Shown: piece after piece, positions 4,198 to 38,988 of the stretch
Position numbering within the stretch: position 1 is the first letter of the stretch
How the letters are laid out: each line of letters opens with the position of its first letter
Sequence record: NC_054915.1
Length of the DNA stretch: 64,000 nt
Direction: 5' to 3' (one strand)
From: Escherichia phage vB_EcoM_G8
Position numbers and translations under genes: made by a program
Notes under the pieces: generated by a model
What the model saw: the letters and a program-made list of their open reading frames with translations, nothing else
Told to the model about the DNA's origin: nothing
Databases searched by the model: none

Positions 4198-4659
4198 TTA
4201 TTTGATTTGTTTAGCAGACCAAATGCGGTCTTTGATGATTTTTTGGAGGTCTTCAACATACTCTAGGTCATGAGCATGTGGATTATCTTTGAAACTATAA
4301 GCACGCGCAAGTTTCTGGCCTTCGGTCTTAATTATCAAAAGTTCTTTAAGAATTGCTTCATACCTAGAGATAATTCCTTTAGCAATATTTTTTTCTTGTG
4401 CTGCTTTAGGGTCAGCCTTAGGAGCAGGTTTACCAGAAGGTTTTTCGAAAGCCGCACCAGTAGCAACCAGGCTTTTCCAGGCGGTGGTAACATAGTTACC
4501 CACAAAGCCTTCAGCTCTCATATCGTCATAGAACTTGTACCGAGATTCGTCAGAAGCATCTTTATAAGAATATTTACCAGCTTTAATAGCAGCAGTTGCT
4601 ACAGCGCGAACATCTGAAGCGGATGCTTCGGTCATTAAAAATTGAGCATAAGTTTTCAT
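4198..4659 (-). CDS. hypothetical protein with an N-terminus resembling a capsid targeting sequence
   Basis: 153 aa; N-terminus MKTYAQFLMTEA resembles the T4 internal-protein CTS (MKTYQEFIAEA); Ala/Lys-rich. Confidence 0.6.
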   Translation of the reverse strand: MKTYAQFLMTEASASDVRAVATAAIKAGKYSYKDASDESRYKFYDDMRAEGFVGNYVTTAWKSLVATGAAFEKPSGKPAPKADPKAAQEKNIAKGIISRYEAILKELLIIKTEGQKLARAYSFKDNPHAHDLEYVEDLQKIIKDRIWSAKQIK

Positions 4660-6192: not shown

Positions 6193-6264
6193 TGGCCCTG
6201 GGTGGAATTGAACCACCATCTGGCGATTATGAGTCGCTTGCTTGAACCTTCCAGCTACAGGGCC
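6193..6264 (-). tRNA. tRNA-Ile (anticodon CAU, presumably modified)
   Basis: Acceptor GGCCCTG/CAGGGCC; anticodon loop CTCATAA; called Ile rather than Met by analogy with the T4 set. Confidence 0.7.
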
Positions 6265-6690: not shown

Positions 6691-6691
6691 G

Positions 6692-6765
6692 CTGGGAATA
6701 AAGGACTCGAACCTTTGCATCTAGCAGTCAAAGTGCTGTGCCTTTACCAATTTGGCTAATTCCCA
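6692..6765 (-). tRNA. tRNA-Gln (anticodon UUG)
   Basis: Acceptor TGGGAAT/ATTCCCA; anticodon loop with TTG; T-loop GGTTCGAGTCC. Confidence 0.8.
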
Positions 6766-6862
6766 ATTATTAACAAAGGCTCTCAAACAAGAACCCTTGA
6801 TGATAGAGGGTATTAATCAGTGCGGTATGAATTAATAATAACAAATAATTCTTAAAGCATAT

Positions 6863-7150
6863 TTACCATTTATGATAATACATATTTACGATGCATTCAA
6901 GACCCAAAGGATTCTTGAAAATATCATATTCAAGAGGACCTTTTTCTGTTTCAATAAAGAAATCAAAATTTACTGTATTAAATTTACGGTCTTCCTTCAC
7001 TAATTTAACTTGAGAAGATGAACGGTCAACATAAACCTTTTCAACTTCAAAACATGTTAAAACGCCATAATCATCAATCAAGGCTTTAGCCGCGTCTTGA
7101 TCATATTTATATCCATTTTCAATGGATGATACTTTAGCATAAAGAATCAT
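6863..7150 (-). CDS. hypothetical protein in the variable ipI-type locus
   Basis: 95 aa ORF between the tRNA cluster and 57B. Confidence 0.55.
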   Translation of the reverse strand: MILYAKVSSIENGYKYDQDAAKALIDDYGVLTCFEVEKVYVDRSSSQVKLVKEDRKFNTVNFDFFIETEKGPLEYDIFKNPLGLECIVNMYYHKW

Positions 7151-7152
7151 TA

Positions 7153-7533
7153 TCAGCCTTCATCAACAATAGTATGAGTGTGGGCATTTACAATTTGCCA
7201 CCAATCAAAGCGATTAGAACCATACATCAGTTTGTTTTCATTTTCTTTGATAATATCACGGAGTTCATCTTCGGTAGCGGCTTTCGCGATTAAATCAGCA
7301 TATCCACCACGAGGATAATAATTATCACCTGCAAAAAGTAAAAAGTTTGGTTTAATATTATTAAACTCTTCAAGAGTAATAACTGTTCCACCAGGTTGAA
7401 CAATATCTACATAACTATATCCTAATTTTTGAGCAGCATCTACTGCTTCAAGCAGGGTATCATGAGCCCATCCAATTTGGCAATCTGGCTTTTCAGATGG
7501 ATTAGCCTGATAATCCGCGTACACTTTATACAT
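7153..7533 (-). CDS. hypothetical protein in the variable ipI-type locus
   Basis: About 127 aa from Met MYKVYADYQ with AAGGTGA RBS; the ORF track gives a longer start at 7572. Confidence 0.55.
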   Translation of the reverse strand: MYKVYADYQANPSEKPDCQIGWAHDTLLEAVDAAQKLGYSYVDIVQPGGTVITLEEFNNIKPNFLLFAGDNYYPRGGYADLIAKAATEDELRDIIKENENKLMYGSNRFDWWQIVNAHTHTIVDEG

Positions 7534-7534
7534 T

Positions 7535-7720
7535 CTATTCACCTTTAGAAATTTTATCCATAACGATAGCAATTAAACCAATTAAAAATGCTACTACAAG
7601 TGAAAAAACATTTTCTGCTGTAGTCAATAATCCGCATATAAATCCAACAAACATTGAAAAACTAAAAGCGGAAGCAGAAATTGCAATAGCAACATTTCGA
7701 ATTAATTCACAGCGTTTCAT
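7535..7720 (-). CDS. small predicted membrane protein
   Basis: 61 aa with two hydrophobic helices. Confidence 0.45.
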   Translation of the reverse strand: MKRCELIRNVAIAISASAFSFSMFVGFICGLLTTAENVFSLVVAFLIGLIAIVMDKISKGE

Positions 7721-7788
7721 TTTATTCTCCTCAGTAGTTGATAGGGTAATAATATCACTACCCTATCTAAAAGTAAACGGTTTATAAA

Positions 7789-8097
7789 CTATTTTATTCC
7801 GCGTGATGCAATTGTGTTCTGCCGTTTAACACCAGTCTGTTTAAAGTCATGATTGTCGATTTGATCGGTACGAGCAACTCCGAATGATGATTTGATCTTA
7901 GCCTTAGATCCTTTAGTTATAGAAATAAACATCTCGGAAGCCCCTTTCTTAAAGTCCGAGGCGATTACTTCAACGCCGTTCTTAGCAAGTGACTTCAGAA
8001 TTGCCTCAGCATACTCATCGTCAAGACTCGCCTGAGTATTAATAACGAATGTCTTTGGCGCAGCCGCTTCATTGATAAATTCTTTAAATGTTTTCAT
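7789..8097 (-). CDS. internal-protein-like capsid-targeted protein (IPI-like)
   Basis: 102 aa; N-terminus MKTFKEFINE/AAAP matches the T4 internal-protein CTS and the gp21 protease L/I-x-E cleavage motif; sits at the ipI position next to 57B. Confidence 0.65.
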   Translation of the reverse strand: MKTFKEFINEAAAPKTFVINTQASLDDEYAEAILKSLAKNGVEVIASDFKKGASEMFISITKGSKAKIKSSFGVARTDQIDNHDFKQTGVKRQNTIASRGIK

Positions 8098-8169
8098 TTT
8101 ATTTTCCTAATTAATTTTGATGAGATAATAGTATCACTACCTCATCAGTATGTAAACAACTTTATGAAA

Positions 8170-8866
<697 letters not shown>

Positions 8867-8867
<1 letters not shown>

Positions 8868-9592
8868 TATAGTACCTTTAGTGTATTTTTAATTTTAGAA
8901 AAAAGTTCTTCAAGAGAACCATCATTTGTAATTACTAAATCGCCATCACGAATTGGCAATCCAGCTTCTGTAATATGTGTATCATTGGATTTTTGACCAG
9001 GACGAACTACATGAATTACTGTAGCACCCATCGCCCTAGCCGCATCCATTTCATGATCTTGACGGGTATCAGGAACGATATAATAATCATAACCTGATTT
9101 AAATTTATCAAGATAATCTAAAGCAAATAATTTTACCCAGTACATGCGGTCGAAGTTATTAACAATCAAATCCGTACCTAGGGCTTGCATCAGACGACGG
9201 ACTGACCATTGATCTTCAATATTATTTATAACGTCAATAATCTTATTAAATGCTACGGAATTAACTGATTCTTGTCCTTCGTCATCAAAAACAAACACAC
9301 CCTTAATTGGGCTTTTACCGTTAAGATAGCAAAATGCTTGTTCCATAATCGTGATTACTTCTGATTTAGTCAGATTTAAATTAGTCTCACGATCATAGTC
9401 AATTCCTTCAAACTCTTTACGAGTTAAGCAAGGATAGTCAGTGTTTTCTGCAAATACGCCCCATGCATAAGCCAATGCATCCTTAATAGGACCAGCAAGT
9501 TGGTATTTAACTGCAGAATAATTACTCATGATAAAATCAGCAGTAGTATCTTTTCCACTACGCTTTACACCGCTTAAAAAGATTAGTTTCAT
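8867..9592 (-). CDS. 1: deoxynucleoside monophosphate kinase
   Basis: 241 aa from Met MKLIFLSGVKRSGKDT (P-loop); GAGGAGA RBS; the ORF-track start at 9631 is an upstream extension. Confidence 0.85.
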
Positions 9593-37925: not shown

Positions 37926-38350
37926 TGCTTCTGATCCCTGAAACTCATGAATTAGTTCTCGAGAATGTCGAAGCACTTATTCCTGAAGCACAGGGTCGCT
38001 TTGACGAATTGTCTTCTGCTTTAAATAAAGACGATATAAATACAATTGTCGAGAATATGCTTGATGATGAAACTGATTTAGCGGTTGCATTAGCTTCTAT
38101 TAATGAAAATATGCCGTTAAATGAATTCATCGTTAAACATGTTTCTGCCCGTGGTGAAATTACTCGCACTAAAGATCGCAAAACCCGCGAACGTAATGCA
38201 TTTCAAACTACCGGGTTGTCTAAAGCAAAACGTAGACAAATTGCTCGTAAAGCTACCAAAACGAAGATTGCCAATCCAGCAGGTCAATCTCGTGCTCAGC
38301 GTAAGCGTAAAAAAGCTCTTAAACGCCGTAAAGCATTAGGATTAAGCTAA
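37925..38350 (+). CDS. 68: prohead core protein gp68
   Basis: 141 aa; basic C-terminus; order 67-68-21. Confidence 0.85.
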
Positions 38351-38988
38351 TGAATGAACCCCAATTACTAATTGAAACTTGGGGTCAACCTGGCGAAATT
38401 ATTGATGGCGTACCAATGCTTGAATCTCATGATGGAAAAGACTTAGGTTTAAAACCTGGTTTATACATCGAAGGAATATTCATGCAAGCGGAAGTCGTCA
38501 ATAGAAATAAACGTCTTTATCCAAAACGTATATTAGAAAAAGCGGTAAAAGACTATATTAATGAGCAAGTTTTAACTAAACAAGCTCTCGGAGAATTAAA
38601 TCATCCTCCACGCGCTAATGTTGACCCGATGCAAGCCGCTATCATTATAGAAGATATGTGGTGGAAAGGAAATGACGTATACGGACGAGCTCGTGTTATT
38701 GAAGGTGACCACGGTCCTGGAGATAAATTAGCAGCTAATATTCGTGCCGGATGGATTCCAGGAGTTTCTTCTCGTGGATTAGGTTCATTGACTGACACAA
38801 ATAAAGGTTATCGTATCGTAAACGAAGGATTCAAATTAACTGTAGGTGTTGATGCAGTATGGGGTCCAAGTGCTCCAGATGCATGGGTAACTCCTAAGGA
38901 AATTACCGAATCACAGACGGCGGAAGCCGATACAAGTGCCGATGACGCCTATATGGCTCTCGCAGAGGCCATGAAAAAAGCGTTATAA
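38350..38988 (+). CDS. 21: prohead core protease gp21
   Basis: 212 aa; size and order. Confidence 0.9.
   Translation: MNEPQLLIETWGQPGEIIDGVPMLESHDGKDLGLKPGLYIEGIFMQAEVVNRNKRLYPKRILEKAVKDYINEQVLTKQALGELNHPPRANVDPMQAAIIIEDMWWKGNDVYGRARVIEGDHGPGDKLAANIRAGWIPGVSSRGLGSLTDTNKGYRIVNEGFKLTVGVDAVWGPSAPDAWVTPKEITESQTAEADTSADDAYMALAEAMKKAL

Follow-up and report, generated by a model that had tools for sequence, protein, structure and literature searches.

The interval between gene 57B and the tRNA cluster of Escherichia phage vB_EcoM_G8 is very probably the ipI locus long known from T-even phages, here in a coliphage of the T4 genus (Tequatrovirus), and is made up of a slot that holds the internal head protein gene ip7 and of the conserved trna.4-trna.3-trna.2 operon. 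Published work already covers the locus, the name of the gene, its targeting signal and the cassettes by which such genes are shuffled. A first-pass annotation of the window (the whole stretch of 64,000 nucleotides analyzed here) had listed four ORFs at 6863-7150, 7153-7533, 7535-7720 and 7789-8097, located between the tRNA cluster and 57B. These ORFs are real, their coordinates and position are right, and all of them lie on the minus strand (Table 1). The claim that they take the place of a lone internal protein I gene does not hold: the same interval of T4 (NC_000866) holds ipI, trna.4, trna.3 and trna.2. Hence, the contrast that made the locus look unusual is mistaken.

Table 1. Features of the ip7 locus and DNA identity to T4 by segment (positions in the window)
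Feature	Position	Strand	Description
57B (Acb1 anti-CBASS phosphodiesterase)	8170..8625	-	Pfam Acb1, E = 2.6e-60
PeSL-type cassette 1	8098..8169	-	Early-promoter-like site 8156-8128: TTTACA, 17 nt, TACTAT, TG upstream
ip7 (internal head protein precursor)	7789..8097	-	102 aa; predicted mature protein 92 aa, pI 9.65
PeSL-type cassette 2	7721..7788	-	Early-promoter-like site 7777-7749: TTTACT, 17 nt, TATTAT, TG upstream
trna.4 (T4 Y07D)	7535..7720	-	61-aa two-TM hairpin membrane protein; 61/61 identical to T4 Trna.4
trna.3 (T4 Y07C)	7153..7533	-	126-aa acidic two-domain protein; N-domain 1-60, C-domain 63-126
trna.2 (T4 Y07B)	6863..7150	-	95-aa acidic protein; 89/95 identical to T4 Trna.2
Spacer before tRNA cluster	6766..6862	-	MotA-box-like middle promoter; 11-bp hairpin 6799-6774
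tRNA-Gln	6691..6765	-	ARAGORN; Rfam tRNA 61.5 bits
gp21 prohead protease	38350..38988	+	Pfam Peptidase_S77, E = 1.5e-111
DNA identity to T4: 57A, 57B	8900-8120		93-100%
DNA identity to T4: ip7 vs ipI	8120-7780		30-51%
DNA identity to T4: cassette 2, trna.4	7760-7580		95-98%
DNA identity to T4: trna.3 5' half	7520-7350		48-58%
DNA identity to T4: trna.3 3' half, trna.2, tRNA-Gln	7340-6740		76-100%

Layout of the locus and comparison with T4

Along the minus strand, gene 1 (dNMP kinase), 57A and 57B precede the four ORFs, which are followed by tRNA-Gln and, beyond it, by the other genes of a T4-type tRNA cluster with segB; the order in the T4 reference is 57B, ipI, trna.4, trna.3, trna.2, tRNA-Gln. 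The upstream flank of the ip slot is formed by the conserved 57B, whose product is identical to T4 57B in 151 of 152 residues (pairwise alignment), and the downstream flank of the locus by tRNA-Gln, the first gene of the tRNA cluster. Directly past the trna.2 stop, upstream of tRNA-Gln, there is a MotA-box-like middle promoter (TATGCTTTA..., from 6861 on the minus strand; a consensus match only). The tRNA gene at 6193-6264 (minus strand) is called tRNA-Met(CAT) by ARAGORN, and its positional counterpart in the T4 record is listed as tRNA-Ile.

Gene order and flanks are those of the T4 ipI locus, with 57B, trna.4 and trna.2 being 94-100% identical and the same promoter-hairpin cassettes present on either side of the ip gene. 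What differs is that ip7 replaces ipI, with a DNA identity of 30-51% across 8120-7780, and that the 5' half of trna.3 is another allele. The three ORFs for which no homolog had been recognized at first are T4 Trna.4, Trna.3 and Trna.2, as judged by identities of 61/61 (100%), 75/136 (55%) and 89/95 (94%) residues together with their conserved order downstream of the ip slot. All four ORFs are far above chance, with PHROG matches at E = 6e-35 to 1e-55 and homologs in 282-802 phage records each; every one of them has a Shine-Dalgarno-like motif, and all four proteins are present letter for letter in public records.

Database searches with the four proteins yielded names, and none of the structural or family matches assigned a function to any of them. 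NCBIfam and PADLOC gave nothing above threshold for any of the four, and neither did a Pfam set lacking the Phage_T4_Y07D, Phage_T4_Y07C and Phage_T4_Y07B models; for the three trna proteins, this empty scan is explained by the missing models. In the newest Pfam, these names are precomputed on proteins identical or near-identical to Trna.4, Trna.3 and Trna.2, and no family has a function attached to it. The cluster listing mixed the 61-aa and 102-aa queries with clusters of 134-136-aa Trna.3 proteins, and only names on the queried sequences were used. Some GenBank entries carry the old Swiss-Prot names [quoted passage not shown], which indicates that the trio has been catalogued for a long time. 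A PDB sequence search with Ip7, Trna.3 and Trna.2 returned chance-level matches only, and Rfam reported zero RNA families within 6863-8169.

The internal head protein Ip7

As had been claimed, the ORF at 7789-8097 carries a CTS, reading MKTFKEFINE and then AAAP. The CTS comprises residues 1-10 (nt 8097-8068) and contains the aromatic residues F4 and F7. Cleavage by gp21 is predicted after E10, where I8-N9-E10 fits the L/I-x-E rule and an A follows (rules for the CTS and the gp21 cleavage motif in PMC9026906). The gp21 prohead protease encoded in the window (Table 1) is the enzyme expected to remove the CTS of Ip7.

Over all 102 aa, CTS included, Ip7 matches the already named RB15 Ip7 at 100% identity, without any difference at the protein level, and it is 99% identical to Ip7 of RB32; it matches PHROG 2667 at E = 2.2e-41 over the full length of the family. 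Judged by sequence, the CTS protein is not new and is the named RB15 Ip7, whose GenBank entry presumably dates to 1994. The same gene occupies the slot between 57B and trna.4 in RB32, P922, Lv5cm and JoYop, and this slot is one of the two polymorphic IP loci, flanked by cassettes of early promoter and inverted repeat. Homologs of Ip7 were retrieved from 282 records of several genera by translated search of 50,697 phage records, among them RB69 as well as Klebsiella and Enterobacter phages. The combination of ip7 alone with the present trna.3 allele is found in 31 of the 723 matching records at a coverage of at least 80%.

Two other assignments were considered and rejected. Ip7 is not a diverged IPI: only the CTS aligns (23/103 residues identical, the first seven shared), and the mature domain of Ip7 has no homology to IPI*. 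What Ip7 and T4 IPI* have in common is the CTS MKTFKEF, a small and basic mature protein (pI 9.65 and 9.0, respectively), the genomic slot and the early-promoter cassette. Nor is Ip7 the McrBC inhibitor Bas37_0260 of phage KarlGJung (Bas37, MZ501089), which shares the slot and has a CTS (MKTYQEFIAE), but is a protein of 77 aa with an unrelated mature sequence and a near-neutral pI of 6.5.

The predicted ferredoxin-like core of Ip7 resembles RRM, ACT and HMA domains, and a conserved C-terminal motif, R-x-N-T-I-x-x-x-G, lies in a low-confidence part of the model. IpI and Ip7 are encoded side by side in P922, and Ip7 together with another CTS gene in Lv5cm, a co-occurrence which fits non-redundant specificities. 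A late promoter was not found directly upstream of ip7, the nearest TATAAATA being located at 9230 (minus strand) inside gene 1, and expression of ip7 during head assembly is therefore an assumption. The late-promoter-like TATAAATA is also seen at 7111 (minus strand) inside trna.2, as a consensus match only.

Possible role of Ip7

Ip7 would be made as a precursor of 102 aa, which MKTFKEFINE would direct to the prohead core. After cleavage by gp21 behind E10, the basic product of 92 aa would enter the head along with the DNA and be injected upon infection, where it would bind and inactivate one host modification-dependent (type IV) restriction nuclease. Packaging of Ip7 in the capsid is very likely. 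Conditional on packaging, we lean towards Ip7 being an injected inhibitor of one particular type IV nuclease.

This reading is guided by precedent. Among the T4 internal proteins, Ip1, Ip2 and Ip3 are inhibitors of GmrSD, every one of a different variant (PMC12373910): IPI* acts on the type IV nuclease CT596 GmrSD, Ip2 on ECOR21 GmrSD and Ip3 on ECOR17 GmrSD, and no cross-protection among the three was seen (PMC12373910). Bas37_0260, which comes from the same slot, inhibits McrBC (bioRxiv 10.1101/2025.11.20.689424). With these four as precedents, Ip7 is most likely an injected anti-restriction protein, and the early proposal of the CTS protein as a candidate anti-defense factor appears plausible. 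The argument is one by analogy alone, as only the CTS is common to Ip7 and IPI or Bas37_0260. The literature search found no paper on the function or target of Ip7.

Alternatively, Ip7 may be injected and act on a target other than a type IV restriction enzyme, either against another early defense or by condensing or escorting the DNA via its basic tail, which we consider possible, though on the unlikely side. The basic mature protein (pI 9.65), the conserved R-x-N-T-I-x-x-x-G motif and the resemblance of the core to RRM, ACT and HMA domains would agree with such a role, and so would the occurrence of homologs in RB69 and in Klebsiella and Enterobacter phages. RB69 DNA carries arabinosyl-hmC and not glucosyl-hmC (PMC6024577), and homologs in these phages suggest that the target of Ip7 need not be glucose-specific. 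However, for each of the four T-even CTS proteins whose target is known, this target is a type IV nuclease that the protein inhibits, and the patchy spread of Ip7 (282 of ~800 related records) together with the mobility of the cassettes fits strain-specific counter-defense better than a general structural role. In addition, PMC12373910 describes the internal proteins of T4 as non-essential. We retain inhibition of a type IV nuclease as the preferred reading of Ip7.

Cassettes of putative promoter and hairpin

The gene ip7 is flanked by two cassettes (Table 1) of the kind reportedly described by Repoila et al. in 1994, namely a sequence of ~70 bp with an early promoter and an overlapping inverted repeat on both sides of IP genes. 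In cassette 1, a 13-bp hairpin at 8147-8118 (-14.8 kcal/mol, z = -2.7) overlaps the -10 box and is followed by the Shine-Dalgarno motif AGGAAA; in cassette 2, a 12-bp hairpin at 7767-7740 (-16.4 kcal/mol, z = -2.4) overlaps the -10 box and is followed by GAGGAG. The two cassettes form direct repeats of 41 nt (76%) and 25 nt (84%), spaced 377-379 nt apart. The motif TTTACW-N10-GTAGTGATAYTATTA has just two matches without mismatch in 64 kb, one in each cassette, against 0.02 expected by chance.

Both sites (8156-8128 and 7777-7749) are intergenic, have a stem-loop and match TTTACW-N17-TAYWAT, the sigma-70-type early promoter consensus of the T4/PST PeSL cassettes (Comeau et al., 2014; PMC4122927), the PeSL architecture as such having been defined by Arbiol et al. 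(2010; PMC2839356). The likeness to the PeSL cassettes of T4-type phages includes an AT-rich stop region, a TTTACW -35 box, a 17-nt spacer, a TAYWAT -10 box overlapped by the stem-loop, a Shine-Dalgarno motif, the ATG, and copies on both sides of a variable ORF. Promoter and terminator activity as well as mini-circles were proved for the RB49 and phi1 cassettes, whereas the present assignment is made from the sequence.

In Tequatrovirus loci, a cassette with covarying (compensatory) stems precedes the ip genes and trna.4; the same cassette is found before trna.4 in T4, Bas37, P922 and Lv5cm, and more distant loci have related upstream regions with hairpins that fall outside the promoter pattern searched. 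Cassette 2 is a conserved putative promoter of the trna.4-trna.3-trna.2 operon. It would drive these three genes from a position ~1 kb upstream of the tRNA genes.

The variable slot in related genomes

Homologous recombination between the early-promoter-plus-hairpin cassettes of ~66-70 nt would swap, add or delete ip genes. Indirect support comes from the breaks in identity to T4, which adjoin the cassettes, and from related genomes, which differ by whole cassettes. The first break-points fall in or beside the two cassettes, since identity drops at ~8120-7780 and recovers from ~7760 downward (Table 1).

For comparison, 25 loci were parsed: the window, T4, Bas37, P922, Lv5cm, JoYop and 19 IMG/VR contigs, including those of JS98-like and VR-like phages. 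The variable slot has gp1 and 57B upstream and Trna.4 downstream in 25 of 25 loci, and wherever 57A, Trna.3 and Trna.2 were detected, they flank the slot genes in the same order. Between 57B and Trna.4, these loci encode zero to three different genes with a CTS, the window having a single one, ip7, between its two cassettes. The description of a hyperplastic ipI-type locus is hence borne out, as the 57B-trna.4 interval may hold 0, 1, 2 or 3 CTS genes. Natural empty slots are seen in two contigs, L032 (1857-1928) and L034 (1860-1931), in which Acb1 is followed by Trna.4 after ~70 nt. Both contigs encode a Trna.2 identical to that of the window, and a third further contig with an identical Trna.2 has a single 77-aa gene in the slot.

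In Tequatrovirus and RB69, Ip7 homologs are located in the 57B-trna.4 slot. Homologs with 46-50% identity occupy the second IP locus, in the vicinity of e, ipII/ipIII and denV, of IME08 (Dhakavirus), CIP9 (Kanagawavirus) and VAC36 (Marfavirus), the compared coordinates being 2483-2800 in L028, 2447-2800 in L029 and 2501-2800 in L031 versus 2501-2827 in L030. This distribution over different IP loci by genus indicates that the cassette has moved between the two.

Two further observations concern the neighborhood. Lv5cm, JoYop and Bas37 have an ORF of ~203 aa between tRNA-Leu and trna.2 (L001 888-1496, L002 888-1496 and L006 394-1011), whose product is labeled an HNH or homing endonuclease in the annotation of JoYop and Bas37 and hypothetical in that of Lv5cm. 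At this place, tRNA-Gln is found in the window (6691-6765) and in T4, and the identity of the window to JoYop falls from 96% to 40% at the tRNA-Gln position. A second CTS-like ORF of 153 aa is located at 4198-4659 (minus strand) downstream of tRNA-Arg and starts with MKTYAQFLMTEASA. It has homologs in 510 phage records, named "hypothetical" in every match listed, and may be an unannotated internal protein with an atypical cleavage motif (M-T-E).

The predicted trna.4-trna.3-trna.2 operon

The three genes downstream of the slot had been taken for variable accessory genes; instead, they are part of a conserved frame across the Tevenvirinae that includes T4. Only 1-2 nt separate trna.4, trna.3 and trna.2, and the trio thus reads as a translationally coupled operon. 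We propose a tightly packed early operon, which would be co-transcribed and encode a membrane protein with two TM helices as well as a pair of small acidic proteins.

The small membrane protein pointed out in the first-pass annotation is the product of the ORF at 7535-7720, a two-helix membrane hairpin with Kyte-Doolittle means over 19 residues of up to 2.03 and 2.35. Homologs of Trna.4 (PF26870, Phage_T4_Y07D) were detected in 789 phage records by translated search of 50,697, and in 427 records Trna.4 is at least 99% identical. Trna.2 (PF27001, Phage_T4_Y07B) has homologs in 802 and Trna.3 in 767 phage records of the same search. In a pull-down with active DRT1, enrichment among the phage proteins was limited to T4 Trna.2 and Inh, a finding that the authors did not pursue (Neville et al., 2026; PMC13275509). 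This pull-down is the only result on the function of Ip7 or of trna.2 to trna.4 that the literature searches found.

Within the trio, Trna.3 differs most from T4, its C-terminal half being conserved and its N-terminal half diverged (75/136 identical, 55%). In the ORF list, the frame reaches back to a TTG at 7572; its true start codon is the ATG at 7533, as all homologs begin with MYKVY or a close variant. The mean pairwise identity among homologs is 48% in the N-domain versus 76% in the C-domain, which has 27 invariant columns, so that the N-domain evolves faster. The 5' half of the gene (7350-7530, minus strand) has a DNA identity of 85-91% with loci of the JS98-like and VR-like phages (L011, L019, L014), whereas the flanks of these loci are only 55-75% identical to the window. 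This points to an exchange of the N-domain segment between genera by intragenic recombination. One homolog (P0067) joins an N-domain of the window type to a C-variant otherwise seen with a T4-type N-domain. Taken together, these data show that trna.3 itself is mosaic.

The fold of Trna.3 is confidently predicted, and a search of this fold against BFVD returned uncharacterized phage proteins only. The C-domain (7153-7341, minus strand; residues 63-126) is the widespread small phage domain Phage_T4_Y07C, with 546 cluster representatives that are mostly standalone proteins of 60-70 aa; in one case (P0162) it is fused to an HTH domain. Structural matches of the C-domain are found in Staphylococcus and Bacillus phages.

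One may speculate that trna.4-trna.3-trna.2 is a counter-defense or host-takeover module which went unnoticed owing to its presence in T4; we regard this as doubtful, yet worth keeping in mind. The idea is kept open by Trna.3, which joins the widespread Phage_T4_Y07C domain to a fast-evolving N-domain exchanged between genera, and by Trna.2, which was one of two T4 proteins enriched with active DRT1. The N-domain of Trna.3 could serve as a module for target recognition that evolves under arms-race selection, and Trna.4 could be the membrane anchor of a complex of the trio.

It is very improbable that the three frames serve mainly as leader of a tRNA precursor transcript and that their proteins are dispensable by-products. 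The cassette-2 promoter is indeed located ~1 kb upstream of tRNA-Gln without a strong terminator in between, and according to Broida and Abelson (1985), transcription of the T4 tRNAs reportedly starts ~1 kb upstream of the cluster. However, the proteins are strongly conserved (Trna.4 at least 99% identical in 427 records, 27 invariant columns in the C-domain of Trna.3), a Shine-Dalgarno motif is present for every ORF, gene gaps of 1-2 nt suggest translational coupling, the fold of Trna.3 is predicted with confidence, Trna.2 was detected by mass spectrometry in infected cells (PMC13275509), and RB69 retains the trio despite a different tRNA cluster. A conserved, protein-coding operon is hence the reading that we prefer for the trio.

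Equally far-fetched is the view that ipI has been replaced by an insertion of four ORFs which are all variable accessory or host-range genes. This view could draw on the variable N-terminal half of trna.3 (48-58% DNA identity to T4 over 7520-7350) and on the co-purification of T4 Trna.2 with the defense protein DRT1, but is contradicted by the same three genes in T4, by identities to T4 of 100% for Trna.4 and 94% for Trna.2, and by the trio being present with its order kept in 767-802 records of several genera, the ip slot alone changing. The first-pass annotation had itself named a match of all four ORFs to conserved T4 genes with known non-accessory roles as evidence against this view; three ORFs do match conserved T4 genes, and these genes are without a known role.

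Implications

The annotation of this locus should be corrected, in that the variable unit is the cassette slot and not the trna.2 to trna.4 trio. Among internal proteins, Ip7 is comparatively widespread, and four of its sister proteins recently proved to be highly specific inhibitors of type IV restriction. Ip7 may hence serve as a pointer for pairing one more inhibitor with one more nuclease variant.
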